Assembly (NCBI GenBank): GCA_963668695.2
Contig: CAXXLQ010000004.1
Coordinates: 3,648,001-3,712,000 of the forward strand
Length of the DNA: 64,000 nt
Direction of reading: 5' to 3'
Source of the DNA: Vicinamibacteria bacterium
GTDB taxonomy: Bacteria > Acidobacteriota > Vicinamibacteria > Marinacidobacterales > Marinacidobacteraceae
Position numbers and translations under genes: made by a program. This document shows, piece after piece, positions 6,725 through 62,770 of the stretch. The notes under the pieces are model-generated. The model did no database searches and had not been told where the DNA came from. It saw nothing but the letters and a program-made list of their open reading frames with translations. Positions within the stretch are counted from its first letter, which is position 1. Every line of letters begins with the position of its first letter.

Positions 6725-6939
6725 CAACCTGTGATGAAACCCGAGCGGCCCAGTTCTCCCGGTGGGGGCTCGGCCGGCGATCCATCCCGGCTGAACCACT
6801 GCGCTTCGCTCCGTTCTGCGTTGCGTTTCGGTCGCAATACACCCGGGCCAGTTCTCCCGGTGGGGGCTCCTCCCTCACGCGCCTTGTCAGCCGGGCGCCT
6901 CGCCGGCCTCGGCGCTCACCCGGGTTCCACCACAGGCTG
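6725..6939 (-). mobile_element. ~180-bp structured MITE-like element, copy A, with 2 micro-insertions
   Basis: Ends CAACCTGTGATGAAACCC / GGGTTCCACCACAGGCTG; flanks TTAA / TTGA; micro-insertions at 6750-6768 and 6848-6866. For all copies, the strand given is the G-U-compatible folding strand. Confidence 0.9.
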
Positions 6940-6956
6940 TTGAGGCGCTTCCAGCG

Positions 6957-7625
6957 ATGCGGATCTTCTTCGACCCGGAGGTCCTCGCCGCCGCCTGGCC
7001 GGGCATCCGTTCGGGGCTCGGGGTAACGCTCGGGCTGGCGCTCTCCTCGATCACCGCCGGAGTCGCGCTCGGGCTGCTGCTCGCGACGATGCGGGCCCTC
7101 CTCCGGGGGGCGCCGCTCCGCCCCATCAGCGGCCTGATCGCCGCCTACGCCGACATCTTCCGGGCCATGCCGCCGCTCGTCCTGCTGGTGGTCCTCTACT
7201 TCGCCGCGCCGTTCGCCGGGATCGAGCTGAGTGGGTTCATGGCGTCCTTCGTGGCGCTCGGGCTCGTGCTCGGCGCTTCCGCCGAAGAGATCTTCTGGGC
7301 CGGGATCACCTCGGTGAACCGGGGCCAGTGGGAGGCCGCGCTCTCCACCGGCCTGAGCCGCGGCACCGTGCTCCGCCAGGTGGTCCTGCCGCAGGCGCTT
7401 CGGCTCACGATCCCCCCGCTCACCAACCGGGCGATCGCCACCGGCAAGAACACCGCGCTCGCTTCGGTGGTGGCGGTGCCCGAGGTACTGAACCAGGCCG
7501 CGAGCATCCAGGCGCAGACCGCGAGTCCGGCGCCGCTCCTGCTCGCCGCGGGGGTCTATGTGGCCCTCTTCCTGCCCCTGGTCCGCGTGGGGCGCTGGCT
7601 GGAGACCCGCTTCCCCACCCGCTGA
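6957..7625 (+). CDS. Amino-acid ABC transporter permease
   Basis: FRAMPPLV, GQWEAALSTGL (EAA loop), KNTAL. Confidence 0.92.
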   Translation: MRIFFDPEVLAAAWPGIRSGLGVTLGLALSSITAGVALGLLLATMRALLRGAPLRPISGLIAAYADIFRAMPPLVLLVVLYFAAPFAGIELSGFMASFVALGLVLGASAEEIFWAGITSVNRGQWEAALSTGLSRGTVLRQVVLPQALRLTIPPLTNRAIATGKNTALASVVAVPEVLNQAASIQAQTASPAPLLLAAGVYVALFLPLVRVGRWLETRFPTR

Positions 7626-7631
7626 GCCGCC

Positions 7632-8666: not shown

Positions 8667-9100
8667 GGCCCACGCTCCGATTCACGAATCGCGCCCTCCG
8701 CGATCTCAAGCGTCTCGACGCACCAACCCACGCGCGGATCCTGGCGGGGATCAAGCAATACGTGGACTCTCCTCCTGCTAACAGCCTGTGGTGAAACCCA
8801 AGCGGCGTTCGAGCGGCGATCCATCCCGTCTGAACCACGCCGCTTTGCGGCGCTCTGCGTTGCGTTTCGGTCGAAATACACCCGGTATTCCTCCCTCACG
8901 CGCCTTGTCAGCCGGGCGCCTCGCCGCTCTCGGCGCTCACCCGGGTTCCACCACAGGCTGCTAAGGCAGTTCGGCTCAAGGGCGCCGGCGACACCTTACG
9001 TATCCGGATCGGCGACTGGCGAGTGTTGTTCGTTTTTCAGACGGTGGAGAACGTCGTCGAGATCCAACGGGTAGTGCATCGCTCTCAGGCGTATCGGTGA
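8663..9100 (+). pseudogene. relE: RelE/StbE toxin disrupted by MITE copy B
   Basis: Removing 8782-8964 restores ...RALRDLKRLDAP...PPAKAVRLKGAGDTLRIRIGDWRVLF...VVHRSQAYR*. The insertion introduces an in-frame TGA at 8792-8794. Confidence 0.9.
8782..8960 (-). mobile_element. MITE copy B (179-bp reference copy, exact CTAA target duplication)
   Basis: CTAA at 8778-8781 and 8961-8964; terminal inverted repeats CAGCCTGTGGTG...CACCACAGGCTG; no micro-insertion. Confidence 0.95.
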
Positions 9101-16363: not shown

Positions 16364-16394
16364 GGACGAGCCTCCAGAACGGGGATGACGTTAG

Positions 16395-16681
16395 CAGCCG
16401 GTGGACAAAGTCACGCGGCATTCCCGAGCCAGAAGAGATGGGGGTCGGGTGCCCCCGTCCCCCGTCTCTTCCGCTCCGGGGTCTCCGCGGTGCTGGCGCC
16501 CCGCTCCGGAAGCGGCCGGCGATACATCCCGGCTGAAACGCGCCGCTTCGCGGCACTCGTCGTTGCGCTTCGGTCGAAATACACCCGGGCCAGTTCTCCC
16601 GGTGGGGGCTCCTCCCTCGCGCGCCTTGTCAGCCGGGCGCCTCGCCAGCCTCGGTGCTCACGCGACTTTGCCCACCGGCTG
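16395..16681 (-). mobile_element. MITE copy C with a ~90-bp extra insert and 1 micro-insertion
   Basis: Ends CAGCCGGTGGACAAAGTC / GACTTTGCCCACCGGCTG; flanks TTAG / CTAG; extra hairpin sequence at ~16424-16512; micro-insertion at 16590-16608. Confidence 0.88.
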
Positions 16682-16722
16682 CTAGCAGCAGCCCGGTGGG
16701 CGGCCGCTATCCTGTTTACGCG

Positions 16723-23689: not shown

Positions 23690-23863
23690 GACGTCCCATG
23701 GCGGAGGCGAGGCGAACACCGAGACCGCTGAGGCGCCCGGCTGACAAGGCGCGTGAGGGAAGGAATACCAGAGGTATTGCGACCGAAGCGCAACGACGAG
23801 CGTAGCGGTTCAGCCGGGATGGATCGGCGGTCGAATGTCGTCTTGCTTTCGTCATGGGGCGTC
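23690..23863 (+). mobile_element. MITE copy D (divergent terminal stem)
   Basis: Same core (GGCGCCCGGCTGACAAGGCGCG...GCAACG...TCAGCCGGGATG) but ends GACGTCCCATGGCGG / TTCGTCATGGGGCGTC. Confidence 0.85.
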
Positions 23864-30280: not shown

Positions 30281-31135
30281 ATGTCCAGCAAACCCAGCCC
30301 CGCCCTGGAACTAAAGGGTGCGCTTGCTAGACTGAGGAATGAAGTCTCATCCCTCGATGCCGCCAGCCGAGGGCAGATCAGCGACCCAGCTCGCCGCGCC
30401 GCGGAAAAGGAACTGGCCGGCGTCATCGCCCGCGCCGAGAAGCTTCAACGACGATTGGATCCGACTGCTCACCCAGCCTTCGTACTCGACCCGGGGAAGC
30501 CGACCGTTGTCGCCCGTCTGATCGCACTTGTTCTGCTGGCACAGCTTAGAGTCCCTCTAGCAGACACGCAGAAGTCTTACGGCTCTGGGATTTACGCGCT
30601 CTACTATCGTGGGCCCTTCGTGCATTACGCGCCGATCAGCGGATCCGAGACACCGATCTACGTCGGCAAAGCAGAACCGGAGAGGCCAACCGCTGAGACC
30701 CCGGCGAGTCAAGGCATCCGCTTGTCTCGACGCCTGCAGGACCATAAGGGAACCATTCAGGCCGTCGAGTCCGAAGGCACGCTGTTGCTCGCCGATTTCG
30801 AACAGCGATCCCTTGTAATTCAGAGCGGTTGGCAATCCGCAGCCGAGGAGTACCTCATCGGGCTCTTCGGCCCAATCTGGAACAAGGAAACCAAGATCTG
30901 TTATGGCTTCGGCAAGCACGGTGATGCCGCGGAGACGCGGGCCAACAAGCGTTCCCCGTGGGACACTCTTCATCCTGGGCGCCGTTGGGCACATCATGCC
31001 AAGCTCTCGGACGCGCACCCCCAACACGAGATCGTCGAGGGCCTCCGGCAACACTTCCACAATACTCGCGTTTATCAGAACCTAGCCGAGATCGTGGACA
31101 TCTTCATGGGCGACTTCCGACAGTTCAAGCCTTAA
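30281..31135 (+). CDS. Eco29kI-family GIY-YIG restriction endonuclease
   Basis: GIYALYY...PIYVGKA, RL..H, E.YLI..F.PIWN, GFGKH, SPWDTLHPGRRWA. Confidence 0.9.
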   Translation: MSSKPSPALELKGALARLRNEVSSLDAASRGQISDPARRAAEKELAGVIARAEKLQRRLDPTAHPAFVLDPGKPTVVARLIALVLLAQLRVPLADTQKSYGSGIYALYYRGPFVHYAPISGSETPIYVGKAEPERPTAETPASQGIRLSRRLQDHKGTIQAVESEGTLLLADFEQRSLVIQSGWQSAAEEYLIGLFGPIWNKETKICYGFGKHGDAAETRANKRSPWDTLHPGRRWAHHAKLSDAHPQHEIVEGLRQHFHNTRVYQNLAEIVDIFMGDFRQFKP

Positions 31136-31314
31136 CAGCCTGTGGCAAAACCCACGCGGCGTTCGCCCGGCGATGCATCCCCGCTGAACCACTCCGCTTC
31201 GCTCCGTTCTGCGTTGCGTTTCGGTCGCAATACACTCGGTATTCCTCCCTCACGCGCCTTGTCAGCCGGGCGCCTCACCAGGCTCGGCGCTCACGTGGGT
31301 TTCACCACAGGCTG
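31136..31314 (-). mobile_element. MITE copy E (exact TTAA duplication)
   Basis: TTAA at 31132-31135 (includes the REase stop) and 31315-31318; 179 bp; no micro-insertion. Confidence 0.93.
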
Positions 31315-31325
31315 TTAAGCGCAAA

Positions 31326-37206: not shown

Positions 37207-37229
37207 CAACGAAGCAACTAACAGCGAAG

Positions 37230-37417
37230 CAACCTGTGAACAAAGTCACGCGGCGTTCGACCGGCGATGCATCCCGGCTGAATCGCGACGCTCTCAGTTC
37301 CGATTCGATCGGAATACACCGGGTATTCCTCCCGAATCGCGCCTTGTCAGCCGGGCGCCTCACCGCCAGTTCTCCCGGTGGGGGCCTCGGCGCTCACGTC
37401 ACTTTGTCCACCGGCTG
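37230..37417 (-). mobile_element. MITE copy F with 1 micro-insertion
   Basis: Ends CAACCTGTGAACAAAGTC / CACTTTGTCCACCGGCTG; micro-insertion at 37366-37384; a 15-bp tandem duplication (TAACARCGAAGCAAC) at its left edge. Confidence 0.88.
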
Positions 37418-37440
37418 CTACCGCCGGAAAGGAATGCAAC

Positions 37441-40207: not shown

Positions 40208-40238
40208 CGCCGGCGGTCGCCCGTTCGCGCCGCGTTAA

Positions 40239-40413
40239 CAGCCGGTGGTGGAACCCGGGTGAGCGCCGAGAGCGGGGAGGCGCCCGGCTGACAAGGCGCG
40301 TGAGGGAGGAATACCGGGTGTATTTGGACCGAAACGCAACGCCGAGCGCCGCAAAGCGGCGCGGTTCAGCCGGGATGCATCGCCGCTTGAACGCCGCCTG
40401 GGTTTCACCACAG
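40239..40413 (+). mobile_element. MITE copy G, right end clipped
   Basis: TTAA then CAGCCGGTGGTGGAACCC...TTTCACCACAG; the last ~4 bp are replaced by a gene fragment. Confidence 0.9.
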
Positions 40414-43623: not shown

Positions 43624-43638
43624 TCTTTCTCCCTCGAA

Positions 43639-44275
43639 CGGCCCGTGAACAAAGTCAGGCGGCCCAGTCCTCCCGGAGGAGGCCCCGGCGTTCACGCGCC
43701 CGGCTGACAAGGCGCGTGAGGGAGGAATACCTGGTGTATTTCGACCGAAACGCAACGATGAGCGGCGCGAAGCGACGCGGTGAACAGCCGGTGGTGGAAC
43801 CCACGTGAGCGCCGAGGTTGGCCAGTTCTCCCGGTGGGGGCGAGGCCCAGCTCTCCCGGTGGGGCCAGTCCTCCCGGTGGGGGCCCGGCTGACAAGGCGC
43901 GTGAGGGAGGAATACCGCGTGTATTCCGACCGAAACGCAACGATCGAGCGGCGCGAAGCGACGCGGTGAACAGCCGGTGGTGGAACCCACGTGAGCGCCG
44001 AGGTTGGCCAGTTCTCCCGGTGGGGGCGAGGCCCAGTTCTCCCGGTGGGGCCAGTCCTCCCGGTGGGGGCCCGGCTGACAAGGCGCGTGAGGGAGGAATA
44101 CCGCGTGTATTCCGACCGAAACGCAACGATGAGCGGCGCGAAGCGACGCGGTTCAGCCGGGATGGATCGCCGGCCGAGCCCCCACCGGGAGAACTGGGCC
44201 GCGTGGGTTTCATCACCGGTTGTTTGGCCGGGATGGATCGCCGGCCGAACGCCGCCTGGGTTTCACCACCGGCTG
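43639..44275 (+). mobile_element. MITE locus H: outer copy interrupted by a partly tandem-duplicated inner copy, 8 micro-insertions
   Basis: Outer copy 43639-43781 plus 44226-44275; inner copy 43785-44222 with a 186-bp duplication (units at 43780 and 43966). Confidence 0.88.
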
Positions 44276-45406
44276 CTACACGTCACTGCGCAGGGAAAGC
44301 CTGCTCCGCAGCGTCTCCATGGTGACCACGCCAACGAAACGGCGGGCGTCGAGGACTGCCAGGGAACGCCGGCCCCCGGCAAAGAGATTCACCGCCCGGA
44401 TGGCCGCGTCCTCCGGGGCCAGAGTAGTGACCAGAATGTCGGTGCGCATGAGGTCGCCCGCAGTGAGCTGCTGCAATTCGTCGGACGACCGGCGATGCAG
44501 ATCCTCGACACGGACCGCACCCACGAGGTCCGCCTCGTCGAGCACCGGTATCTCGGTGTGCGGCGTTGCGAGCGCTACCAGTTCGATGCCGGAAACATGC
44601 CTCGGGACGGCGAGGATCCGGTAGTCGAGCAGGTGGGCCGCGGTTACCCCTTCAAGCGTCTTGGCGAGCCAGACCTGGCGTGTCACCTCGCGTGACGTCC
44701 GCCGCAAATGGAGCCCGATCAAGACAAACCAGCCGCCGAGCACCAGACGCACGGCGCCTCCCGCCGGCCCGCTGCCGCCAAAGAGCGCCAGCACCCCGAA
44801 TGCGACCATCAGAAGTCCGAAAGTGCCGCCGGTAGCCGCAACGGCCCGGGTAGCGGCCAGGGGCCGGTCCCAGACAATCCAAAGCGCGGCTCGCAGGATC
44901 CGGCCGCCATCCAGGGGAACGGCCGGAACCAGGTTGAAGGCCAGCAGCAGGCCGTTGATCAGCGCCAGGTTGTCCGCCACCGCGACAACCGAAGCCGGCG
45001 CCGCCGCGCCCAGTTGAGCGACCGCGAGAAACACCACCAGCAGAACCAGCGTCGCGAAAGGACCCGCAACGGCGATCCGAAGTTCGGCCCCCGCGCCGCC
45101 CGGATGCCCTTCCAGTTCGGTGGCCCCGCCGAACACCTTGAGAGTAATCCCGGACACCTTCTGCCCCGTTCGCGCCGCGACGGCGGCGTGGGCCAGCTCG
45201 TGGATCAGGACGGACCCGAGAATCAGCACGCTGGTCACCACTCCCAGTGCGGCGGCGCCCGCCGCCGAGACTCCGGGAACACCCCGGAAATAGAGAACCG
45301 CGAAGAGCGCCGATACGACGCTCGCGGTCAGCAACCAGGAAGAGTGGATCCGCACCGGAAAGGGCAGCCAGGGCCGGCGGGCTGTCCGCCGTCGCGGTCC
45401 GGTCAC
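44276..45406 (-). CDS. Site-2 protease (M50) with CBS-like C-terminus
   Basis: HELAH, IAVAGP, FNLVPAVPLDGGRILRA. Confidence 0.92.
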   Translation of the reverse strand: MTGPRRRTARRPWLPFPVRIHSSWLLTASVVSALFAVLYFRGVPGVSAAGAAALGVVTSVLILGSVLIHELAHAAVAARTGQKVSGITLKVFGGATELEGHPGGAGAELRIAVAGPFATLVLLVVFLAVAQLGAAAPASVVAVADNLALINGLLLAFNLVPAVPLDGGRILRAALWIVWDRPLAATRAVAATGGTFGLLMVAFGVLALFGGSGPAGGAVRLVLGGWFVLIGLHLRRTSREVTRQVWLAKTLEGVTAAHLLDYRILAVPRHVSGIELVALATPHTEIPVLDEADLVGAVRVEDLHRRSSDELQQLTAGDLMRTDILVTTLAPEDAAIRAVNLFAGGRRSLAVLDARRFVGVVTMETLRSRLSLRSDV

Positions 45407-46908
45407 GGGTCCCTGCCCCCGGCTTCGGGCGCCGCTTCCTGGCCGCCACGCGACAGGATGAGCAACCGGTCTCCCGGACCGAGTTGATCATCGAGCCAGC
45501 CCCGATTGAGGAATTCCACCGCGCCCGGCGGGCCGTCGATTCTTCCCTCCGCGGCGAGACGGTCCAGGGCGTCGCGTACCGATCCGCTCCCGCCCACGGC
45601 CAGCGCGGTGATCCGGAACGGCCCCGGTACCGGGGTATCCCACAAGCGGTCGGCGCTCCCGAGCACCTCCAGAAAAAGAGCCTCGCAGGCGTCGAAGCGG
45701 CGGCGAGCACAATCGAGACTCACTTCGACAAGAGACGCTCTCGATCGAAACAGCGCGAGGAGGCCAGCGGGCTCTCCCCCGAGAGTCCCGGAGGCCGAAT
45801 CCGCCGGGAGGCTCGGCGCCCCCTCGCACAAACCCGCGGCAGCCGCCGGATTCTCCCCGGCCCGTTCCCTCGGCCCCTCGCTCGCCAGGGGCTGAACCCG
45901 ACTCCGGACGGCGGTGAACCCGCGGACCCGAAACGCCTCGACGAACGTCGCCTCCGCGCCGTGGCAATCCGCGGTCCTCCAGAGATGGGCCGCCAGGGCC
46001 GCGAGATGGGCCCGGTGGGCAGCCACCCCGGCGGCATCAACCCCGGCGGCATCAACCCCGGCGGCATCAACCCCTGTCGCGCTCGGCTGGGTAAGGCCCT
46101 GGGTTACCGGAATCTCCCGCACGGTCAGCCGCAGAGGTTCTCCCTTGCGGCTCGCGCGAAAAACCCCGCGCCCCACCGGCTCGAACGAGCTCTCGTCAGG
46201 CAGCGAGAGCCGGAAATCCGCCTGCGGCAGGAGCAGGCCCGACCCGTCCGCAACCCCGAACTCGGCGGGCTCCCCGAAGAGCAACCCATCGAGAAGATCG
46301 AACCAGCGGTCCCGACTCGTATCCGGGGCGGCAGCTTCGTCCGTTGGGCGTTCCGGATCGGGCTCCAGCGGCAGCACCAGCGGGAGCGGCTGCTCGACCA
46401 GGTTCCCCGCTGATGGGGACCGGAAGGCGCCGCTCGCAAAGGTTGCCGCGGCCGACCCGAACAGTTCGACGAGCGCCGGCTCGCCCGGCAAGGCGGCAAG
46501 CGCCCCCCGGGAAACGAAGACCGTCCGGTCGGCGAAGAGGAAGGCCTCCGGCTTCGCATCATCGAGGACGAGAAAGCGCCAGCCATCGTGGAGGGTCGTC
46601 TCCTCCCGGGCACCGGCGGCCAGCAGCGGGGCCTCCGCTATGGCCTCGAGACCGATCTCGGAAATGCGGGCGGCGAGCTCAGGGTCCCGAACGAGCGGCC
46701 GATGACCCTCGAATGCACCGCGGGCGCGCTCGGCGGCATGAATTGCCGCCGCGTCCGGCGGCATGGCGATGGGCGCCGACGTTGCCGCACAGCCCGCGGC
46801 AGCGAGGCTACCGAAAAACGCGAGAACCGAACGGAGGCTTAACAGCCTGTGTTGGAACCCGCGTGAGCGCCGAGGTCGGCGACGAAACGATTTGTGGGCG
46901 CGGGACAC
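45403..46908 (-). CDS. Divergent M48-peptidase-like lipoprotein lacking HEXXH
   Basis: LAAAGC lipobox; WRFLVLD..PEAF....VFVSRG.L, LDGLLFGE, C-terminal LN....L.PGDRL; (GVDAA)3 repeat at 46025-46074; start uncertain. Confidence 0.55.
   Translation of the reverse strand: MSRAHKSFRRRPRRSRGFQHRLLSLRSVLAFFGSLAAAGCAATSAPIAMPPDAAAIHAAERARGAFEGHRPLVRDPELAARISEIGLEAIAEAPLLAAGAREETTLHDGWRFLVLDDAKPEAFLFADRTVFVSRGALAALPGEPALVELFGSAAATFASGAFRSPSAGNLVEQPLPLVLPLEPDPERPTDEAAAPDTSRDRWFDLLDGLLFGEPAEFGVADGSGLLLPQADFRLSLPDESSFEPVGRGVFRASRKGEPLRLTVREIPVTQGLTQPSATGVDAAGVDAAGVDAAGVAAHRAHLAALAAHLWRTADCHGAEATFVEAFRVRGFTAVRSRVQPLASEGPRERAGENPAAAAGLCEGAPSLPADSASGTLGGEPAGLLALFRSRASLVEVSLDCARRRFDACEALFLEVLGSADRLWDTPVPGPFRITALAVGGSGSVRDALDRLAAEGRIDGPPGAVEFLNRGWLDDQLGPGDRLLILSRGGQEAAPEAGGRDP
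46843..46882 (+). mobile_element. MITE remnant I (one end only)
   Basis: TTAA plus CAGCCTGTGTTGGAACCCGCGTGAGCGCCGAGGTCGGCGA. Confidence 0.8.
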
Positions 46909-48756: not shown

Positions 48757-48759
48757 CAG

Positions 48760-48992
48760 TAGCTCGTGGATGAAATGGCGTGAGCGCCGAGGTCGGTGAG
48801 GCGCCCGGCTGACAAGGCGCGCGAGGGAGGAGCCCCCACCGGGAGCACTGGCCCCGGCGTATTCCGACCGCAGCGGAACGATGAACGGAGCGAAGCGCCA
48901 GTTCTCCCGGTGGGGGGGCGGTTCAGCCGGAATGCATCGCCGGCCGAACGCCCACCGGGAGAACTGGGCCGCGTCATTTCATTCACGGGCTG
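48760..48992 (+). mobile_element. MITE copy J with 3 micro-insertions
   Basis: Ends TAGCTCGTGGATGAAATG / CATTTCATTCACGGGCTG; micro-insertions at 48833-48851, 48898-48916 and 48951-48967. Confidence 0.9.
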
Positions 48993-48997
48993 CTCCT

Positions 48998-49303: not shown

Positions 49304-49307
49304 TTAG

Positions 49308-49495
49308 CGGTCCGTGGACGGGGTCAGGTGAGCGCCGAGACCGGTGAGGCCCAGTTCTCCCGGTGGGGGTCCGGCTGACAAGGCGCGATTTGGGAGGAAT
49401 ACCGAGCGTATTCCGACCGAATCGGAACGAAGAGCGTAGCGGTTCAGCCGGGATGCATCGCCGGTCGAACGCCGGCTGACCCCGTTCACGGGCCG
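49308..49495 (+). mobile_element. MITE copy K with 1 micro-insertion; contains the nuoJ stop codon
   Basis: Ends CGGTCCGTGGACGGGGTCAG / CTGACCCCGTTCACGGGCCG; micro-insertion at 49351-49369. Confidence 0.9.
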
Positions 49496-49998
49496 CTCCC
49501 CCTCCGGCGGCGGACCAGCATCGCCGCGCCCATGAGCGCGATCAGCAACAGGACCGACGCGATTTCGAAGGGGAGCAGGTAGTCGCCCACCAGCAGCCTT
49601 CCGATGGACTCGCTCGTCGGTCCCAGATCGCCCGAGTTCATGGCGCCCCAGTCCACCGAATTGATGATCCACACCAGCAGCGCGAAGACGAGCCCCGCGG
49701 ACAGCGCCCCCGGGACGACCTGAATCGTTCCGGAACTGATGTTCAGGTTGTAGATCCGGTTCGTCAGCATCACGCCGAAGAGCAGCAGGGTGAGGATGCC
49801 GCCGACGTAGATGAGCACCTGCGCGCCGGCGAGGAAGTCAGCGCCGAGATAGACGTAGAAGACGGCTATCCCGAAGAACGCCGCGACCAGCGCGAACGCG
49901 GAGTGCACGAGGTTCTTCCCGAGGACCACGTAGAGCGCGGACCCGAGCACGAGCGCAGCGACCCCGTAGAAGATCGCCGCCGCCGCCATGGATTCCAT
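49486..49998 (-). CDS. nuoJ: NADH-quinone oxidoreductase subunit J
   Basis: QVLIYVGGI, YLLPFEIASVLLL. Confidence 0.95.
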   Translation of the reverse strand: MESMAAAAIFYGVAALVLGSALYVVLGKNLVHSAFALVAAFFGIAVFYVYLGADFLAGAQVLIYVGGILTLLLFGVMLTNRIYNLNISSGTIQVVPGALSAGLVFALLVWIINSVDWGAMNSGDLGPTSESIGRLLVGDYLLPFEIASVLLLIALMGAAMLVRRRRGSGP

Positions 49999-52935: not shown

Positions 52936-52987
52936 GGGACCCGCTTCGGGAGTTTCACTGCCCTGTCGGGCAGCGATGCCGGCCTAG

Positions 52988-53202
52988 CAGCCTGTGGTGA
53001 AACCCAGGCGGCGTTCGAGCGGCGATGCATCCCGGCTGAACCGCCCCCCCACCGGGAGAACTGGCGCTTTGCGGCGCTCTGCGTTGCGTTTCGGTCGAAA
53101 TACACCAGGTATTCCTCCCTCACGCGCCTTGTCAGCCGGACCCCCACCGGGAGAACTGGGCCTCGCCGCTCTCGGCGCTCACCCGGGTTCCACCACAGGC
53201 TG
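52988..53202 (-). mobile_element. MITE copy L, inserted in the loop of a REP, with 2 micro-insertions
   Basis: GATGCCGGC-CTAG[element]CTAA-AGGCCGGCGTTCC; micro-insertions at 53046-53064 and 53141-53159. Confidence 0.92.
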
Positions 53203-53245
53203 CTAAAGGCCGGCGTTCCTACTTCGCTCATTGCGCCTGCGCCAC

Positions 53246-54448: not shown

Positions 54449-54877
54449 TCAGGCAGCCGCTTCCGAAGAGGAAGCTGTCTTCGCTACGGGACGGGCCTTG
54501 AGAGCGCGCCGATCCTCTTCCCGAACCCATTCGAGATCGCCCTTCACCCATACGTCCGCGAGCCCGAGGACGAGCATGCCGATGAAGATGAGCCCCGCGA
54601 TCAAGGCTCCGGGGCCGAGGTCAAGATAGACCAGCGCCCAGGGAAGCAGCATGACCGCTTCCACGTCGAAAATGAGAAACACCAGGGCGAAGACGTAGAA
54701 CCGGATGTTGAACTGGACGCCCCAGGGAGTCCCCACCGGATTCTCGCCGCACTCGTAGGGCTGCGACTTGCTGCTGAGCGGCAGCGAGGGGCGGACCAGC
54801 GACGAGGCGAAGAGGGTGACGGTCACGAAGAGCACGCCAACTACGATCGCAACCAGTGGTCCCAGGTATTCGCCCAT
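54449..54877 (-). CDS. nuoA: NADH-quinone oxidoreductase subunit A
   Basis: YECGE, FLIFDVE, KGDLEW. Confidence 0.95.
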   Translation of the reverse strand: MGEYLGPLVAIVVGVLFVTVTLFASSLVRPSLPLSSKSQPYECGENPVGTPWGVQFNIRFYVFALVFLIFDVEAVMLLPWALVYLDLGPGALIAGLIFIGMLVLGLADVWVKGDLEWVREEDRRALKARPVAKTASSSEAAA

Positions 54878-55018
54878 CGAAATTCTAAGAACCGCCGCCT
54901 CGGCAACCCGGGCCGCGGAACGCACAGAATTCTATCGGGCGGCCCGACAATGGTAAAGAGCAAACGTCCGGGAAGACACCTCCCGAGAAGCCTGCCGTCC
55001 CCGCCCTCGCCTGCCGCC

Positions 55019-55732: not shown

Positions 55733-55793
55733 ATCGCGCCTGACGCCGGCTGCCTTTCGCACCGGCGGTTTCGGCCTGTCTATACTGGTAGAA

Positions 55794-56009
55794 CAGCCTA
55801 TGGTGAAACCCAGACGGCGTTCGGCCAGCGATCCATCCCGGCTGAACCGCGTCGCTTCGCTCCGCTCATCGTTGCGTTTCGGTCGCAATACACTCGGTAT
55901 TCCTCCCTCACGCGCCTTGTCAGCCGGACCCCCACCGGGAGAACTGGGCCTCGCCCCCACCGGGAGAACTGGCCGGCCTCGGCGCTCACCCGGGTTCCAC
56001 CACAGGCTG
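55794..56009 (-). mobile_element. MITE copy M with 2 micro-insertions
   Basis: Ends CAGCCTATGGTGAAACCC / GGGTTCCACCACAGGCTG-TTAA; micro-insertions at 55929-55947 and 55954-55972. Confidence 0.92.
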
Positions 56010-56017
56010 TTAAAGCG

Positions 56018-56368
56018 ATGAGGCATATCGGGTCGATGCACCGGAAACCGCTCGCCGCCGCGGTACTCGCCGTGGTACTGGCGTTCGCGGTCGTTTGCCC
56101 GCTGATGGCGGCGCCCGGAGTTCCGGCAGACCAGGGGTGCCACAGCAGTTCGGAGCCGGCTCCGGGCGAAGAACGCGCCAGCGTGTGCTGTTCCTCGGTC
56201 ACGGTTCCCAAGCTGCTTGCGCCCGGCCCGGGACTGGTGGCGGCTCTGCCCGCCTCCTTCGAGGCCGCGCCGGACATTCCGAGGTGGAACCACCAATCGG
56301 ATGGTCCCCTTCCCTTCCGGAAGCCGAAGCCGCCTCTCTTCGTCCAGCACGCCGCACTGCTGATCTGA
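56018..56368 (+). CDS. Small Cys/His-containing exported protein upstream of the cus operon
   Basis: Signal-like N-terminus, CH and CC motifs, Pro-rich C-terminus KPKPPLFVQHAALLI. Confidence 0.65.
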   Translation: MRHIGSMHRKPLAAAVLAVVLAFAVVCPLMAAPGVPADQGCHSSSEPAPGEERASVCCSSVTVPKLLAPGPGLVAALPASFEAAPDIPRWNHQSDGPLPFRKPKPPLFVQHAALLI

Positions 56369-56611
56369 GTTCCCGTCGTCCGAACGTTCGGTCCCGCTGA
56401 GCCGAGCGTCGCCGGAACGGGCCCACGCATCGCGCGCGGCGCCCCGTACCGCGCGGCCCCGGCCAGTTCTCCTGACGATCGGCGGCCTCCGCGTTGAAAA
56501 AGTAAACGCGGGGCGGTTCTCCGGGCGCATCGCAAGCCCGGCGACCCGTCAGAACTCCGTGCCGAAAGGCCCGATCTGACGCGCCCTCTGCTGGCGATAC
56601 CCCCACTCACC

Positions 56612-57937: not shown

Positions 57938-59397
57938 ATCGGGCTCTGGCAATCGGCGCCGGCAGCTTCCTCGCCGGGGTAGGGATCGCCGCTCTTTTGG
58001 TGTTCGGGCTTGGCGGCTGGGAGTGGCCGCCCCCCTTCCTGGCGGTCCAGGACGCCGGCGAAGGTGCCGGATCGGACGACCCGCCCGCAAAGGCTGAACG
58101 GGAGATCCTCTACTGGAGGGCCCCCATGGACCCGAACTTCATTTCGGACCGGCCGGGCAAATCCTCCATGGGCATGGATCTCGTCCCGGTGTACGCGGAC
58201 GAAGCAGAGAGCCAGCCGGAGGGCACGGTGCGCATCGACCCGACCTTCGTACAACGCATCGGGGTCCGGACGGCGGCCGTCGAGCGTCGCGACATCGCGC
58301 AGACCATCCACACCGTCGGCACCATTGCCCACAACGACAAGCAGATCGCCTGGGTGAACACCAAGATCGACGGCTGGATCGAGAACATTGCGGTGAACTA
58401 TCTCGGGGAGACGGTCGAGAAGGGCCAGGTTCTCTTCGACATCTACAGCCCGCAACTGGTCACCACCCAGACCGACTACCTCAACGCGGTGCGCTATGCC
58501 AAGCGGCTCGACGCCTCGCAGTACCCCGACGTCGCCGCCAGGGCGCAGTCGCTGGTCGCATCGGCACGCGCCCGGCTCCGCCACTGGGACATCACAGACG
58601 AACAGATCGAAACGCTCGAGCGGGAGGAGACGCCGCGGCGCACGCTCTCGGTGGTCTCCCCGGTAGCCGGGGTGGTCGTCCAAAAGATGGACGCGGCGCT
58701 GGACGGCATGTACGTCCGGCCGGGAATGAATCTCTACAAGCTGGCGGACCTGACCACCATCTGGGTGGACGTCGAGATCTTCGAGCACCAGGTGGAAGCC
58801 ATGCGGATCGGCCAGCGGGCCGAGGTGGAGCTGCCCTACGTGCCGGGACGGCCCTACACGGGATTCGTCCGCTACCTCTACCCGCATTTCAACCAGGAAA
58901 CCCGCACGATGACGGTGTCCATCGAGCTCGCGAATCCGGACCTGACCTTGCGCGCGGGGATGTACGCGAACGTCACCTTCGATGTCCCGGTGGCCGGGAA
59001 CGCCCTCGCCGTGCCCGAAGAAGCGGTGATCCGGAGCGGCACCCGGAACCTCGTCGTCCTCGAGCTTTCACCGGGCCTGTTTCGCGTAGCGGAGGTCACG
59101 CTCGGAGCGGGAGCCGACGGGTTCCGGGAGGTGCGCGAGGGGATCTCCGAGGGAGACAAGGTCGTGGTCTCGGCGCAGTTCCTGATCGATTCCGAGAGCA
59201 ACCTCACCCAGGCGATCAGGGCTCTTACGCGGGAATCCGAAGCGCGGGAATCCGAAGCGCGGGAATCCGAAGCGCGGGAATCCGAAGCGCCGGAACCCGA
59301 AGCGCCGGAACCCGAAGCGCGGGAATCCGAAGCGCGGGAATCCGAAGCGCCGGAACCCGAAGCGCCAACCCACGACCTGTCGCATCAGCACCACTGA
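57934..59397 (+). CDS. cusB: CusB-type periplasmic adaptor of heavy-metal RND efflux
   Basis: YWRAPMDP...[25 protein letters not shown]; repeat tail ending in HQHH. Confidence 0.9.
59230..59364 (+). repeat. In-frame 15-bp VNTR, 9 units ([10 protein letters not shown])
   Basis: CGGGAATCCGAAGCG x4, CCGGAACCCGAAGCG x2, then x2 and x1. Confidence 0.92.
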
Positions 59398-59403
59398 CCG
59401 CTC

Positions 59404-62400
59404 ATGGAAGAAACACCCCGCGGCGCACCGCCGACGCTGGACGGGCGAGAACCGCGCCAACCGGACGCGAAGCAACCGATGCTCGCAAGAACCATCGAAT
59501 GGTCGCTTCGGAACCGCCTGTTCGTCCTCGTGGCCACCATCTTCCTCGCGGTGGGCGGATTCCAGGCGCTCCGCGCAACGCCCCTCGACGCATTGCCCGA
59601 TCTGTCGGATGTCCAGGTGATCATCTTCACCGACTATCCGGGACAGGCGCCGCAGGTGGTGGAGGACCAGGTCACCTACCCGATCACCACCCAGATGCTC
59701 GCGGTTCCCTACGCCCAGGTGGTGCGCGGCTATTCGTTCTTCGGGTTTTCGTTCGTCTATGTGATTTTCGAGGACGGCACCGACCTCTACTGGGCGCGGA
59801 GCCGCGTTCTCGAGTACCTCAACTACGTCAGCGGGAGGCTGCCGGAGGGAGTCACTCCCACGCTCGGTCCCGACGCCAGCGGCGTTGGGTGGGCGTACAT
59901 GTACGCGCTGCGCTCCGAGGACAAGGACCTCGCCGAACTGCGGTCGCTCCAGGACTGGTTCCTCAAGTACGAACTCACCGCGGTGCCGGGAGTCTCCGAG
60001 GTAGCGAGCGTCGGCGGGTTCGTGCGGCAGTACCAGATCACCGTGGATCCGAACCGGCTACGCGCCTACAACATATCCCTCTCGCGAATTCGCGACGCCG
60101 TCCGGCGCAGTAACAGCGACGTGGGTGGAGGGGTGTTCGAGACGGCGGAGACCGAGTTCATGGTGCGGGGGGAGGGGTACATCACGGGGCTCGACGACGT
60201 CCGCAGCATCGCACTCGGGGTGGACGCATCCGGTACCCCGGTCACGGTGCAGGACGTTGCGACCGTGCAGTTCGGCCCGGAGATCCGGCGCGGCCTTGCC
60301 GAGCTGAACGGCGAGGGGGAAGTGGTCGGCGCCATCGTGGTCGTGCGGTCCGGCGAAAACGTGCACGAGGTGGTAACCCGGGTCAAGGCGCGGCTCGACG
60401 AACTGCGGCCCGGACTCCCGGCAGGAGTCGAGATCGTCCCGGTCTATGACCGGACGGTCCTGATCGAGAATTCCGTCGCCACCCTCCAGCGGAAGCTGCT
60501 CGAAGAAATGGCGATCGTCGCGCTGGTGTGCGCGGTGTTCCTGCTGCACCTGCGCTCCGCACTGGTCGCGGTCCTCACCTTGCCGCTCGCGGTGCTCATG
60601 GCCTTCATCGTGATGTACGTGCAGGGAGTCGGCGCCAACATCATGTCGCTCGGCGGCATCGCGATCGCCATCGGCGCCATGGTCGACGCGGCAATCGTGA
60701 TCGTCGAGAACGCCCACCGCCACCTCGAGCGCGACCGGGGCCGGATTCCCCACTGGCGGATCATCGCCCGCGCGTCCACCGAGGTGGGGCCGACTCTGTT
60801 CTTCGCGCTGCTGGTGATCACGATCTCCTTCGCGCCCATCTTCGCGCTGGAAGCACAGGAAGGCCGGCTCTTCCGGCCGCTCGCGTTCACCAAGACGTAC
60901 GCGATGGCCGCCGCCGCGCTGCTCTCCGTGACCGTGGTGCCGGTCCTCGCCGGGTACTGGATCCGCGGGCGCATCCGGCCGGCTCGCGACAATCCGATCA
61001 CCCGTGCCCTCATGGCGCTCTACCGGCCCCTGCTCCGGCGGGTCCTGGCGTGGCGCTGGGCCGTGCTCGCGCTGACCATCGCGGCGGCCGGCGTTACGGC
61101 GGTTCCCGCGTTGCGACTCGGCTCGGAGTTCATGCCGCCGCTCTGGGAAGGCGACCTGCTCTACATGCCGACCACCCTGCCCGGGGTTTCCATCACCAAG
61201 GCCCGCGAGATCCTCCAGGAGACGGACCAGATTCTCACGACCTTCCCCGAAGTGGAGCTGGTCTTCGGCAAGGTGGGCCGGGCCGAGACCGCGACGGATC
61301 CGGCGCCCCTGAGCATGATCGAAACGACGATCCTGCTGAAGCCGGAGGACGAGTGGCGGTCCGGGATGACCCCGGACCGGCTGATCGCGGAAATGGACGA
61401 CGCCATCCGCTTTCCGGGCCTGACGAACGCGTGGACCATGCCCATCAAGACCCGGATCGACATGTTGTCCACCGGCATCAAGACCCCGGTGGGGATCAAG
61501 CTCTCCGGCCCCGACCTCGCGGTCCTCGAAGAACTCGGCAGCCGGGTCGAAGCCGTGGTACGCGACGTACCCGGAACCCGGTCGGCCTACTCGGAGCGCG
61601 TCATGGGCGGCAACTACCTGAACTTCAAGATCCGGCGGGACGCCATCGCGCGCTACGGGCTGACGGTCGGGGACGTCCAGGACGTCATCCAGTCGGCGAT
61701 CGGCGGAATGAACATCACGACTACGGTGGAGGGGCTCGAGCGCTACCCCGTGAACCTCCGCTACCGCCGCGACCTTCGCGACAGCCCTGCCGATTTCGGA
61801 GACATCCTGGTCCAGACGCCGACGAAACAGCAGATTCCGCTTGCGTTTTTGGCGGACATGTCGTTCGTCAAGGGACCACCCGTCATCAAGAGCGAACAGT
61901 CGCGCCCGAATGCCTGGATCTATGTGGACATCGAGGACGTGGACATCGGGACCTACGTCGAGAACGCCCAGGCGGCGGTCGCCGCAGGCGTGGACATTCC
62001 CACCGGCTACAGCCTGCGGTGGAGCGGGCAATACGAGTTCATGCTGCGCGCCCGCAAACGCATGGAGATCATGATCCCGCTCACCCTGCTGCTGATCCTG
62101 CTGACCATCCAGATGAGCACCCGGTCGTTGCCCAGGACCCTGATCGTGGTTTCGGCGGTGCCGCTCTCGTTGATCGGCACCTTCTGGCTCCTCTACGCGC
62201 TCGACTACAACCTGAGCATCGCGGTCGGGGTGGGGATCATCGCGCTCGCCGGACTGAGCGCCGAGACCGGGGTCGTGATGCTGCTGTATCTGGACCGGGC
62301 CTGCGAAGAGGCCGGAACGGAGGGGCGCCTGACCAACCGCGCCGAACTGAGCGCGGCGGTTTTCGATGGAGCCGTCCGCCGGGTGCGGCCGGTCGCCATG

Positions 62401-62610
62401 CTGACCGCCACCACCGCGCTGGGCCTCCTGCCCATCATGTGGAGCACCGGCGCCGGATCCGACGTGATGAAGCGGATCGCCGCCCCCATGGTGGGCGGGG
62501 TGGTCACCGCGGCGCTGGTGGCGCTGGTGGTGTTTCCCGCGATCTACTTCATCTGGCGGGGATGGGGGTTGCCGCGGGCGGAAGATGGCGCCCTGGCGCC
62601 CGTGGAGTAA
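59404..62610 (+). CDS. cusA: CusA/SilA Cu(I)/Ag(I) RND efflux pump
   Basis: LDALPDLSDVQVII, YWARSRVLEYL, EFMPPL.EGDLLYMP, RIDMLSTG, MKRIAAPMVGG. Confidence 0.95.
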   Translation: MEETPRGAPPTLDGREPRQPDAKQPMLARTIEWSLRNRLFVLVATIFLAVGGFQALRATPLDALPDLSDVQVIIFTDYPGQAPQVVEDQVTYPITTQMLAVPYAQVVRGYSFFGFSFVYVIFEDGTDLYWARSRVLEYLNYVSGRLPEGVTPTLGPDASGVGWAYMYALRSEDKDLAELRSLQDWFLKYELTAVPGVSEVASVGGFVRQYQITVDPNRLRAYNISLSRIRDAVRRSNSDVGGGVFETAETEFMVRGEGYITGLDDVRSIALGVDASGTPVTVQDVATVQFGPEIRRGLAELNGEGEVVGAIVVVRSGENVHEVVTRVKARLDELRPGLPAGVEIVPVYDRTVLIENSVATLQRKLLEEMAIVALVCAVFLLHLRSALVAVLTLPLAVLMAFIVMYVQGVGANIMSLGGIAIAIGAMVDAAIVIVENAHRHLERDRGRIPHWRIIARASTEVGPTLFFALLVITISFAPIFALEAQEGRLFRPLAFTKTYAMAAAALLSVTVVPVLAGYWIRGRIRPARDNPITRALMALYRPLLRRVLAWRWAVLALTIAAAGVTAVPALRLGSEFMPPLWEGDLLYMPTTLPGVSITKAREILQETDQILTTFPEVELVFGKVGRAETATDPAPLSMIETTILLKPEDEWRSGMTPDRLIAEMDDAIRFPGLTNAWTMPIKTRIDMLSTGIKTPVGIKLSGPDLAVLEELGSRVEAVVRDVPGTRSAYSERVMGGNYLNFKIRRDAIARYGLTVGDVQDVIQSAIGGMNITTTVEGLERYPVNLRYRRDLRDSPADFGDILVQTPTKQQIPLAFLADMSFVKGPPVIKSEQSRPNAWIYVDIEDVDIGTYVENAQAAVAAGVDIPTGYSLRWSGQYEFMLRARKRMEIMIPLTLLLILLTIQMSTRSLPRTLIVVSAVPLSLIGTFWLLYALDYNLSIAVGVGIIALAGLSAETGVVMLLYLDRACEEAGTEGRLTNRAELSAAVFDGAVRRVRPVAMLTATTALGLLPIMWSTGAGSDVMKRIAAPMVGGVVTAALVALVVFPAIYFIWRGWGLPRAEDGALAPVE

Positions 62611-62627
62611 CGGCTCGGTGCCGTTAA

Positions 62628-62770
62628 CAGCCGGTGGTGAAACCCAGGCGGCGTTCGAGCGGCGATGCATCCCGGCTGAACCGCGCCGCTTTGCGGCGCT
62701 CGGCGTTGCGTTTCGGTCGAAATACACTCGGGCCAGTTCTCGTCACTCACCCGGGTTCCACCACAGGCTG
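62628..62770 (-). mobile_element. MITE copy N, internally deleted at a micro-insertion
   Basis: Flanks TTAA / TTGA; the core stops at ACTCGGG-CCAGTTCTC and jumps to CTCACCCGGGTTCC. Confidence 0.88.

Follow-up and report, generated by a model that had tools for sequence, protein, structure and literature searches.

The window, that is, the whole stretch of 64,000 nucleotides of a Vicinamibacteria genome that was analysed here, carries a short repeat whose terminal arms differ from copy to copy. We asked what is conserved in this repeat and in what form it moves. According to the original prediction, a core is shared by 14 loci, and the ~180-bp element is conserved as a single-stranded structure on the strand reading CAAGGCG...GCAACG (the core strand) rather than as fixed terminal repeats, working as a folded RNA or ssDNA rod and making 4-bp duplications.

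The window contains 14 matches to the 22-nt core GGCGCCCGGCTGACAAGGCGCG with up to three mismatches, as against 0.01 expected from shuffles. The cores themselves were therefore counted correctly, but they are spread over 12 loci, with three of them in one nested or tandem array. With at most one mismatch, we find 642 cores in the 4.1-Mb genome (616 on C4, 17 on C1 and 9 on C3). The element is a very abundant non-autonomous transposable element family (a MITE). While its basic copy, with 181 nt, is close to the predicted size, this size is not fixed: full elements measure 181-289 nt (elsewhere in the analysis ~181-290), and the spacing of the inner anchors is quantised in 18-nt steps, due to an optional 18-nt module found at fixed places in the element. 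The fold is a rod from end to end. A terminal stem P1 (~22 bp) is followed by a conserved, partly paired internal loop, by the helices P2 (8 bp) and P3 (9 bp) and by a branched core, likewise conserved, that forms two small hairpins. Hairpin 2 ends in a C-[G/A]NA-G triloop (columns 119-120), which we take to be a classic stable DNA mini-hairpin motif and so a lead towards DNA as the folded strand. The fold reaches out to the outermost base at either end of the element. Arm sequences vary among the copies yet remain complementary; the arm types quoted in the original prediction are all present, each of them self-complementary.

The window copies illustrate this variety. Complete basic copies lie at 8781..8961 (minus strand, 181 nt, TA on both sides; used in the arm analysis and for fold energies) and 31135..31315 (minus strand, flanks TTA|A...T|TAA; used in the arm analysis), and a third basic copy at 40238..40413 (plus strand) lacks, by its sequence, the final 5-6 nt of the right arm. 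Complete copies with modules are found on the minus strand at 6724..6940 (two 18-nt modules), 37229..37418 (arm type ACAAAGTG, a left-half 18-nt module), 52987..53203 (two modules, TA-flanked) and 55793..56010 (two left-half modules), and on the plus strand at 48759..48993 (arm type TAGCTCGTGGATGAAATG). Arm type CGGTCCGTGGACGGGGTC is seen in the complete copy at 49307..49496 (plus strand), and a divergent type (GACGTCCCATGG...) in the copy at 23690..23863 (plus strand), which has no TA flanks and the arms of which form 17 Watson-Crick and 5 G-T pairs. The complete, TA-flanked element at 16394..16682 (minus strand) has a hybrid interior, with the left half of the core joined to a different right half. 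The array at 43638..44276 (plus strand; family D11, 99% identity) has cores at 43695, 43880 and 44066, a period of 186 bp and two right halves at its end. Finally, there is a fragment of left arm and left loop only at 46842..46882 (plus strand; family D9) and, recognised by its sequence, a 145-nt internal-deletion derivative at 62627..62771 (minus strand), which retains both arms and the 3' core and has lost the 5' core.

The element is mobile, as had been predicted. In the sister genomes G001 and/or G004, where the flanks of the empty sites are ~93% identical, the orthologous sites at ~16500, 37300, 49400, 53100 and 55900 are empty, and the core-bearing portion of the array at 43700 is missing from G001. 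For example, the site of 16394..16682 reads ...T TA G... in both genomes and that of 37229..37418 reads ...C TA C... in G004; the copy at 49307..49496 is absent from both, with a junction that is not clean, and the copies at 52987..53203 and 55793..56010 are absent from G001. Furthermore, contigs from the runs X3 and X4 connect 52985 to 53206 and leave a single letter in the middle; this is the empty allele in a close strain. On the other hand, the copy at 6724..6940 is present at the orthologous site of G001 (in G004, where the site is not clean, the alignment is interrupted at this copy), and aligned blocks span the copies at 23690..23863 (both genomes) and 48759..48993 (G001).

The target duplication of this lineage consists of TA rather than of the predicted 4 bp: the element inserts at Y-TA-R sites. 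The flanks are laid out as YTA|R...Y|TAR, where only TA is duplicated and the inner R..Y belongs to the element, and all three clean empty sites can be explained by TA with no further change. A tally of the flank table has shown that the inner flank bases are complementary in 30 of 36 informative copies, with wobble in another 2, whereas the flanking 4-mers are identical in just 4 of the 36. In its inheritance, the inner R..Y pair follows the arm subfamily (p = 2e-6). In G018, a genome of another genus, the flanks do resemble 4-bp direct repeats, and the integration chemistry may therefore differ across the family.

Since the element brings its own purine..pyrimidine ends, insertion into TAA or TAG recreates the stop codon on either strand. 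For example, the terminal base of copy 6724..6940 forms with the flanking TA the TAA stop (6722-6724) of the gene at 5951-6724, and the last base of the array forms with TA the TAG stop of the minus-strand gene starting at 44276. Copies sit between genes and leave them intact, and many adjoin stop codons, i.e. the 3' ends of genes. Other small repeat families with different interiors have the same termini TA|R-CAGCCNGTGG, which suggests an end signal recognised by its sequence, of the kind that ordinary TIR elements have. Given this common motif and the constraint on the fold described below, conservation concerns two things at once, a short terminal sequence and a single-stranded structure.

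What is the evidence for a constraint on one strand? By eye, about 32 of 35 arm mismatches had been scored as G-T pairs on the core strand. In agreement with this, we counted 30 G-T pairs, no A-C pair and 2 other non-pairs in the outer 22 bp of 10 window copies, a count that omits four cores (the script took internal repeats for three of them and found no arms for one). Genome-wide, the 235 of 276 anchor-defined copies with an ungapped 21-bp arm have 4116 Watson-Crick, 584 G-T, 35 A-C and 200 other arm pairs. The bias is thus no artefact of counting by eye, and it does not become symmetric in the larger set. The A-C mismatches in these copies are scattered, with no more than 6 per position. 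The bias is also found in the internal helices (P2, P3 and the hairpins of the core): summed over all 62 consensus pairs, 75 distinct basic copies give 4121 Watson-Crick, 444 GU and 22 AC pairs, and 17 stem positions have G-U in at least 4 copies while none has A-C in at least 4. RNAalifold assigns -91.0 kcal/mol to the core strand and -40.2 to its complement. At the left end, positions 3, 9 and 10 are invariant and their right-end partners vary; for positions 1 and 4 the opposite is seen.

Two simple causes of this asymmetry could be rejected. A strand-biased mutation spectrum does not agree with the rare variants, which have no strand bias (C>U 16 vs G>A 22, A>G 6 vs U>C 7), nor with the common polymorphisms in unpaired columns (A/G 4, C/U 1). 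Local selection by orientation to genes does not agree with the GU:AC ratios, as the bias is the same in sense (112:8) and antisense (187:13) copies (145:1 in other contexts). On the core strand, transitions that leave G-T are inherited by whole subfamilies, and switches from AU to GC go via G-T; transitions that leave A-C are just scattered, rare decay. Private changes gave GU 17 vs AC 12 in one set and GU 6 vs AC 21 in another, both being small, threshold-dependent counts. As rare variants are unbiased and A-C pairs only scattered and rare, the constraint acts on those copies that found new copies.

The original prediction had also allowed for similar repeats in other bacteria. We find matches in 21 of 24 genomes of the family besides that of the window, and in other genera the same fold occurs with different arm sequences and a core identity of 82-87% between genera. 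In an alignment of 19 copies from four genomes, 96.2% of the cells in 54 pairs are paired and 21 pairs have changed on both sides; this pairing was reached by none of 500 shuffles, and slid controls were 34-44% paired. Summed over the pair table, the wobble is again one-sided (GU 93 vs AC 10). Since the bias is genome-wide, cross-genus, internal and neither mutational nor orientational, a single-stranded fold of one strand is its simplest cause.

That one strand has been kept able to form a long hairpin suggests that the element spreads via a single-stranded folded form. Our best reading, which we put forward tentatively, is that this MITE duplicates TA and moves as a fold-back of single-stranded DNA, formed by one particular strand. 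In a donor copy, that strand would fold back on itself, and the paired arms would offer one duplex-like end signal (CAGCCNGTGG) beside both termini. An enzyme supplied in trans could then cut the folded strand and insert it at TA, with the second strand synthesised after insertion. Founding copies would have to keep the rod on the core strand, and a few G-T pairs in a lineage may suffice to let just that strand fold well and so lock in the strand choice. As to the enzyme, the genome has no match to the HUH Y1 transposase (Y1_Tnp; RAYT or IS200-type) and nothing above threshold for TnpB, so no known enzyme of ssDNA transposition was found in it. Nor did the genome yield a matching autonomous element, which the original prediction had proposed to look for next to an HUH, DDE, IS110 or RT gene. 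Candidates for an enzyme that duplicates TA were seen just among the IS630-type DDE enzymes. Several points weigh against this reading: the lack of a matching enzyme, the unrelated ends of the resident IS630-like and DDE_Tnp_1 loci, the small share of family genomes with DDE_3, the 4-bp-like flanks of G018, the small counts on which the neutrality of private changes rests, and an orientation that shows no bias relative to replication once gene direction is controlled.

Of the predicted alternatives, RNA or ssDNA, we lean to ssDNA because there is no match to the reverse transcriptase RVT_1 in the genome, because the fold uses the extreme termini, because the core strand is mostly antisense to genes and because the asymmetry persists with DNA energy parameters (-56.2 kcal/mol for the core strand of copy 8781..8961 vs -48.0 for the complement). 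It is also possible, and not much less likely, that the same MITE has RNA as its folded strand, and that the rod is selected since transcripts containing it must fold, for example as a protector of mRNA 3' ends, a target of RNase III or RNase E, a small RNA or an RNA aiding its own mobilisation; only well-folding lineages would then be fixed after insertion. G-U tolerance and AU-GU-GC switching are the classic signature of an RNA helix, the RNA fold of copy 8781..8961 differs greatly between the core strand (-114.1 kcal/mol) and its complement (-89.4), and the position of many copies at gene 3' ends would suit such a role. Furthermore, according to PMC2229807 and PMC3184786, bacterial MITEs such as ERIC, Correia and bcr1 act as RNA structures within mRNAs into which they are co-transcribed. 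However, in 280 of 398 tandem contexts (70%) the flanking genes run opposite to the core strand, regardless of the direction of replication, so that read-through mRNA mostly bears the strand with A-C mismatches, and the bias is no different in sense copies. An internal promoter could not yield a transcript with the terminal bases that the fold needs. The 35 scattered A-C mismatches of resident copies speak against upkeep locus by locus, an RNA form would find no reverse transcriptase in this genome to turn it into new copies, and Rfam scans gave no family match.

The preferred DNA fold-back reading must also be weighed against an ordinary double-stranded TIR element, moved by a DDE enzyme, in which the bias comes from functionally unlike ends and shared ancestry. 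The end motif, the TA duplication and the Y-TA-R target are typical of IS630/Tc1-type elements, covariation of the arms alone is expected if one protein must fit both ends, and the copies cannot be counted as independent. The four genomes richest in first-look candidates (G000, G001, G004 and G008) all belong to the 5 of 15 in the genus that have DDE_3 hits, a comparison that is confounded by kinship. Across the family, DDE_3 is present in 7 of 28 genomes, and most genomes that carry the repeat are without it. In the window's own genome, the arm types match no conventional IS ends: those of the resident IS630-like elements (3 loci) and of 7 DDE_Tnp_1 loci are unrelated to the repeat. What makes this explanation improbable is that the bias extends to internal helices, which are not ends, that 17 separate positions are biased with zero counter-examples, and that other genera have the bias despite different arm sequences. 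In addition, the pattern at positions 1, 3, 4, 9 and 10 follows from one pairing rule, whereas differentiation of the ends needs a rule per position. A host-domesticated structural repeat, no longer mobile and kept as a protein-binding or chromosome-organisation site or a terminator, would fit the copy number, the core conserved across genera and the intergenic placement, but it is very improbable, given that presence varies at many loci among sister species and strains, that nested and truncated copies occur, that resident copies decay and that no conserved U-tract follows the rod.

How does the fold-back element compare with known systems? RUP of Streptococcus pneumoniae is small and non-coding, with terminal inverted repeats, TA insertion, many copies and presumed mobilisation in trans (PMC2229807), and Nezha is an entry in Table 1 of PMC3184786. 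Our element is like RUP and IS630/Tc1-mariner-type MITEs such as Nezha in its TA insertion, inverted ends, many copies and presumed trans mobilisation. The ends of RUP, as described, resemble IS630-Spn1, whereas the resident IS630-like elements of the present genome have ends unlike those of the repeat, and the available portions of both papers (PMC2229807, PMC3184786) do not report a strand-specific wobble rule or a conserved branched core for RUP or Nezha. ERIC-type copies are TA-flanked and bcr1 is reported to preserve its structure via compensatory changes (PMC3184786, PMC2229807). ERIC, Correia and bcr1 are rod-like MITEs as well, with TA flanks in the ERIC type; the Rfam scans, with no match, do not indicate a relationship. 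In our element, the strand that folds better mostly runs antisense to the genes next to it, and the constraint is visible in inherited changes, not in private ones.

IS200/IS605 elements (IS608, ISDra2) and their MITE-like derivatives are strand-specific ssDNA substrates, the hairpins of which tolerate non-canonical pairs. Their hairpins are separate and subterminal, their target is not duplicated, and their enzyme is the Y1 TnpA; ssDNA elements of the IS608 type have a strong lagging-strand orientation bias. Our element shares the strand-specific single-stranded substrate with non-canonical pairs. It differs in that its ends pair mutually, TA is duplicated, Y1 and TnpB are missing and no orientation bias relative to replication is seen once gene direction is controlled. 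REP/REPIN sequences, mobile repeats that go with RAYT transposases, are doublets of palindromes of roughly 20-40 nt, in which the hairpin is preserved over the exact sequence and movement as a single-stranded fold is presumed. While our element is one 180-290-nt rod with TA duplication and without a Y1_Tnp gene, it resembles the repeats treated in the REPIN and RAYT papers (PMC3116915, PMC2817692) in that the fold rather than the exact sequence is preserved, and in its presumed single-stranded movement.

The window has 14 matches to the 22-nt core on which the original prediction was based, whereas shuffled sequences would give 0.01. The element is 181 to 289 nt long, has no coding capacity and nearly always lies between genes. 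It is bounded by terminal inverted repeats, that is, by arms of 21-22 bp that start with R-CAGCCNGTGG. Along the core strand (the strand that reads CAAGGCG...GCAACG), the left half of a basic copy of 181 nt consists of the TA, the terminal purine, the arm P1 (~21 nt, starting with CAGCCNGTGG), GTGAGCGCCGAG, P2 (8 nt), GGCG and P3 (CCCGGCTGA). Then come two hairpins, the first being GGAATAC-N5-GTATT and the second having as its cap C-[G/A]NA-G, a GNA-type triloop; such triloops are a stable mini-hairpin motif of DNA, which is a lead only to a folded form made of DNA. The right half is made of P3', ATGSA, P2', CGAACGCCG, P1', the pyrimidine and the TA. The two "loops" are partly paired (GUG-A-GCG with CGCCGC), such that a small internal loop remains. 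In G019, a genome from another genus, pairing sequences take the place of this internal loop, which is thus not conserved as a motif.

The spacing of the inner anchors is quantised (128 + 18k nt). The steps of 18 nt are due to an 18-nt module (CCACCGGGAGAACTGG and neighbours), of which there are 1522 copies on the main contig C4, 1211 of them within 200 nt of a core. Inside the element the module is found at fixed places, with opposite orientations in the left and the right half; examples in the window are 6755-6775, 43810-43870 and 53140-53160. It occurs in other repeat families, too, including a second short family with the layout GATGCCGGTCTGAAGG-module-CCGGCGTTCCC. The idea of an in-frame peptide (an SD-like GGGAGG and then GTG) was dropped, since many copies differ in length by +1 nt.

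Several other repeats are present in the window. A 15-bp unit (CGCGGGAATCCGAAG or CGCCGGAACCCGAAG) is repeated head to tail about 12 times at 59198-59381, where the ORF 57934-59397 meets the ORF 59404-62610; the latter is a large transporter-like ORF, and its nearest named relatives are from uncultured Vicinamibacteria/Vicinamibacterales genomes. A 32/65-bp repeat with ACTAGTAGCAGTAACACC has at least three copies at 104-266. Finally, 300 bp are duplicated with 98% identity (27904-28203 and 31326-31625), and the second copy adjoins the element at 31135-31315.

Genome-wide, a 15-nt core with at most one mismatch was found 642 times in the four contigs (4.10 Mb), 330 times on the plus and 312 times on the minus strand, and a BLAST search of this genome with one copy of the element returned 2149 aligned pieces. 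The repeat was matched in all 15 genomes of the genus and in 21 of 24 of the family; in two other families of the same order, 8 of 16 genomes have weak matches. Full-length copies with identical architecture are present in the 400-800 kb that we took from each of three genomes, one of the same genus (G010) and two of other genera (G018 and G019). The identity of copies from different genera, 82-87%, is as high as between copies inside one genome. Contig C1 (144 kb) gave no match when searched against a plasmid collection, and a search of viral contigs with the 18-mer gave a single exact match, in an apparent coding sequence and without arms. C1 and the chromosome have stretches in common that carry identical repeat copies and flanks (C1 ~54416-57872 and C4 ~357891-361347; C1 ~3239-3741 and C4 ~307422-307822); they may be a duplication or a redundancy of the assembly, possibly related to the "contamination" figure of 9.3%. 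Our search for prior descriptions was limited to the core string, which had no match in the literature, and to the combined topics of Acidobacteria, sponges and miniature inverted repeats, where we saw no mention of the repeat.

The strand-specific wobble that had been noticed by eye was borne out by counting. Ten copies in the window have true arms, and in their outer 22 bp we found, on the core strand, 30 G-T, no A-C and 2 other mismatches. For the whole genome, the left loop, the core and the right loop together defined a set of 276 copies. Of these copies, 235 have an ungapped 21-bp arm, and their arm pairs comprise 4116 Watson-Crick, 584 G-T, 35 A-C and 200 other pairs. A set of 75 distinct basic copies has 62 consensus pairs, and over all of these the respective counts are 4121, 444 (GU), 22 (AC) and 61. 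When these 75 copies are tabulated, G-U is seen in at least four copies at 17 stem positions and A-C at none (sign test, ~1.5e-5, with positions treated as independent). At the pairs 16-172, 22-166 and 36-153, which switch between AU and GC, the third state is GU and never AC. RNAalifold assigns -91.0 kcal/mol to the core strand and -40.2 kcal/mol to its complement; one copy folded as RNA has -114.1 vs -89.4 kcal/mol, and folded as DNA -56.2 vs -48.0 kcal/mol.

We also aligned copies across genera (19 sequences: 6 from the window, 6 from G010, 6 from G019 and 1 from G018). The alignment has 54 consensus pairs with 96.2% of the cells paired, and 21 pairs are altered on both sides. None of 500 shuffles reached any of the five measures, and slid controls were 34-44% paired. 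Summed over the pairs, there are 93 GU vs 10 AC. Rfam, searched at gathering score, had no match in the whole window; for a single copy, the best match was a plant miRNA hairpin model with E = 0.37.

Could the G-T pairs come from a mutation process instead? A strand-biased mutation (C to T) was rejected as their source, because neither the rare variants nor the unpaired polymorphisms have such a bias. Among variants present in at most 2 of the 75 copies, C>U was counted 16 times vs 22 for G>A, and A>G 6 times vs 7 for U>C; where unpaired columns carry a common polymorphism, it is A/G in 4 columns and C/U in 1. Local selection according to orientation was rejected as well, since the excess of G-U over A-C holds in sense (112:8), antisense (187:13) and other contexts (145:1). 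A-C mismatches are only scattered and rare (at most 6 per position among the 235 copies); G-T states are common to tens to hundreds of copies. Note that the counts of "rare" pair types vary with the copy-number threshold, from GU 17 vs AC 12 to GU 6 vs AC 21, and that the threshold masks private G-T pairs wherever an inherited G-T is already present, which biases the second pair of counts against G-T. Because these counts are unstable, we relied on the symmetry of the base spectrum and on the way in which the A-C mismatches are scattered. We infer that the constraint acts on those copies that found new copies, and that near-neutral decay sets in thereafter.

The window, which is C4:3648001-3712000, has syntenic stretches in two sister genomes, G001 and G004 (~93% identity). 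The copies at ~16500, 37300, 49400, 53100 and 55900 and the array of nested or tandem copies at ~43700 (43638-44276) are missing there. In contigs of a close strain, from the metatranscriptome runs X3 and X4, position 52985 is joined to 53206 with one letter between them.

The original prediction had assumed duplications of 4 bp. For the genome under study we rejected this in favour of TA, based on the flanks, the inheritance of the inner pair and all three clean empty sites. The flanks are Y-T-A-R at both ends, and the flanking 4-mers are identical in 63 of 229 copies. In our own tally of 36 informative, non-palindromic copies, 30 have complementary bases next to the element (and 2 more a wobble there), and 4 have identical 4-mers. 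The inner pair depends on the arm subfamily, with A..T 50 vs G..C 19 in the ACCC type and 3 vs 20 in the AGTG type (p = 2e-6). The clean empty sites, T-TA-G, C-TA-C and C-T[A/G]-A, all fit a TA duplication without further change, whereas the 4-bp model requires one change at each of them; sites that are not clean (the G004 site of the copy at 6724-6940 and the sites of 49400, 55900 and the array) were left out of this reading. In this lineage the element is therefore R-CAGCC...GGCTG-Y, and TA is duplicated. The same repeat family in G018 (loci L184-L223) may duplicate 4 bp instead: perfect 4-bp direct repeats flank 5 of 8 copies (TATT, TTAT, CAAG, ACGT and CATG), and not all of these are centred on TA.

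The TA and the terminal purine of the element together give TAA or TAG, on either strand. According to our own rough gene finder, this triplet is the exact stop codon of a gene at 149 of 825 element ends, for example at 6722-6724 and 44276-44278 in the window. This suggests how the element can be harmless in a compact, GC-rich genome (~68% GC in the window): the TA of a stop codon is targeted, and the stop is rebuilt by the element's own end. Among 641 cores classified with rough gene calls, 398 lie between genes of the same direction, 131 between divergent and 104 between convergent genes, and 8 are inside a gene. For 280 of the 398 cores between genes of the same direction, the core strand runs antisense to them. 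We rejected replication as the cause of this orientation, since the antisense share is ~70% both for leading-strand genes (antisense:sense 167:69) and for lagging-strand genes (105:46), and convergent contexts are split 53:53 relative to replication; the bias thus follows transcription. Perhaps the better-folding strand, or its SD-like GGGAGG and then GTG, is more harmful within an mRNA. The four metatranscriptome runs consist of assembled contigs that carry no strand, ends or level and are broken by repeats, and their high summed depth over the elements reflects copy number only.

Our profile searches for transposases and related families covered PF13358, PF01609, PF13340, PF01797, PF00078 and PF07282. 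The genome has three IS630-like (DDE_3) loci, with transposases at C4:667052-668191 and C4:~3753705-3754925 among them, and seven DDE_Tnp_1 loci. At a marker-gene completeness of 91.7%, and with control genomes positive, Y1_Tnp (PF01797, RAYT/IS200-type) had 0 matches in it; DUF4096 (PF13340) and the reverse transcriptase RVT_1 (PF00078) had none, and TnpB (PF07282) had one sub-threshold match only. No IS630-like or DDE_Tnp_1 insertion sequence of this genome has ends like those of the element, which are TA-R-CAGCCNGTGG; the IS630-like ends are TA-GTGTGGTGTCC, TA-GTGTCGTGTCA and TA-GTAGAGCG. IS630-like relatives in the sister genomes all insert at CTAG and have ends unrelated to the element's. 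A longer autonomous copy, as envisaged by the original prediction, was found neither among the IS630-like and DDE_Tnp_1 ends nor among arm pairs 0.35-8 kb apart. Two arm-bounded stretches of 3 kb (C4:57119-60064 and C4:3830937-3833972) were discarded as candidates, since they represent a duplication of a gene region; an F420_oxidored domain is present in one ORF, a transposase domain in none. DDE_3 was found in 7 of 28 family genomes, compared with 21 of 24 for the repeat, and some single-contig genomes (e.g. G014 and G019) have the repeat and no match to DDE_3. The four genomes with the most repeat candidates at first look (G000, the genome studied here, with G001, G004 and G008) are all DDE_3-positive; as they are close kin, this is a hint at most.

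Other small repeat families with different interiors have the same termini, TA-R-CAGCCNGTGG, which argues for a sequence-specific end signal used by several non-autonomous families. One of them, a ~96-nt repeat (family B) with the same terminal motif, the arms CAGCCCGTGGRRAAAGCRCCCCGCAC and highly variable interiors, has ~24 paired copies genome-wide (e.g. C4:107129, 184765 and 2515657); as to the wobble rule, the interiors are too variable to orient these copies without using the wobble itself. We also noticed, outside the window, an intact IS630-like element (C4:667052-668191) with a transposase of 380 aa, which has 12 copies in G001. It occupies precisely the TA where two repeats meet (...GGCTGC TA [IS] TA GCAGCC...); repeats that abut in this way create CTAG, the target of this IS630-like element.

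In summary, the element is a MITE that duplicates TA, has a short end specific in sequence and is under a strand-specific structural constraint that acts on its propagation. As the transposition substrate we favour a fold-back of single-stranded DNA, for the following reasons: no reverse transcriptase was found in the genome, the fold depends on the outermost bases of the element, neighbouring mRNAs mostly carry the other strand, and the strand asymmetry persists under DNA energy parameters. On the other hand, no known single-stranded DNA transposase was found in the genome, and the orientation has no replication bias. A constraint at the RNA level on the folded core strand is thus a serious rival. 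A retroelement with an RNA intermediate would need a reverse transcriptase, for which PF00078 had no match in the genome. If transposition went through a DNA fold-back, the enzyme would act on the arms of a single folded strand, paired with each other, and the donor duplex would survive, which, we propose, would explain ~640 copies in 4 Mb. The choice of the strand would be locked in by the G-T pairs, the enzyme would be either a DDE transposase that works on hairpins or a protein unlike any transposase family known, and the 70% antisense share could stem from insertion close to stop codons, where transcription has opened the DNA. The complete proposal, that is, a TA-duplicating family with a strand-specific single-stranded DNA fold-back and a hairpin-acting DDE enzyme or a protein outside the known transposase families, is tentative, and we regard it as possible rather than probable.

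It is a long-standing puzzle how MITEs, which code for nothing, multiply to hundreds of copies. Izsvak and colleagues reportedly proposed a fold-back single-strand route for MITEs in 1999; to our knowledge, the sequence evidence for it has so far been thin. The present family is unusually clean material: its copies number in the hundreds and fall into several arm subfamilies, it has relatives in other genera and recent insertions, and its wobble rule points to one strand. If the enzyme is found, single-strand transposition outside the HUH families could be tested directly. If the RNA reading is true, a very large family of structured-RNA repeats would be added for the Acidobacteriota, from which, as far as we know, few RNA elements have been described.

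Finally, we compared the element with known systems. An integron attC site does not fit the arrangement: attC arrays have one orientation, lie beside intI and have cassette ORFs between the sites, whereas the copies here are dispersed on both strands (330/312) between ordinary genes. An element derived from IS200/IS605, or an omega-RNA, differs in that Y1 TnpA was not found, TnpB was sub-threshold only and a TA duplication is present, whereas such elements make no target duplication. With MITEs in general the element has in common that it is small, non-coding and intergenic, with terminal inverted repeats and a target duplication with empty sites; an autonomous relative was not found. It shares the TA duplication at an NTAN target with MITEs derived from IS630/Tc1-mariner, but its ends are unlike those of the resident DDE_3 elements, and DDE_3 is missing in many genomes that bear the repeat. 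It resembles RUP and other IS630-type MITEs in the target, and ERIC, Correia and bcr1 in the rod shape. Like REPINs it is kept as a hairpin, but the genome has no matching RAYT (Y1_Tnp) gene. We file the element as a kind of MITE that is set apart from RUP/IS630, from ERIC/Correia/bcr1 and from REPINs by its enzyme or by its ends.
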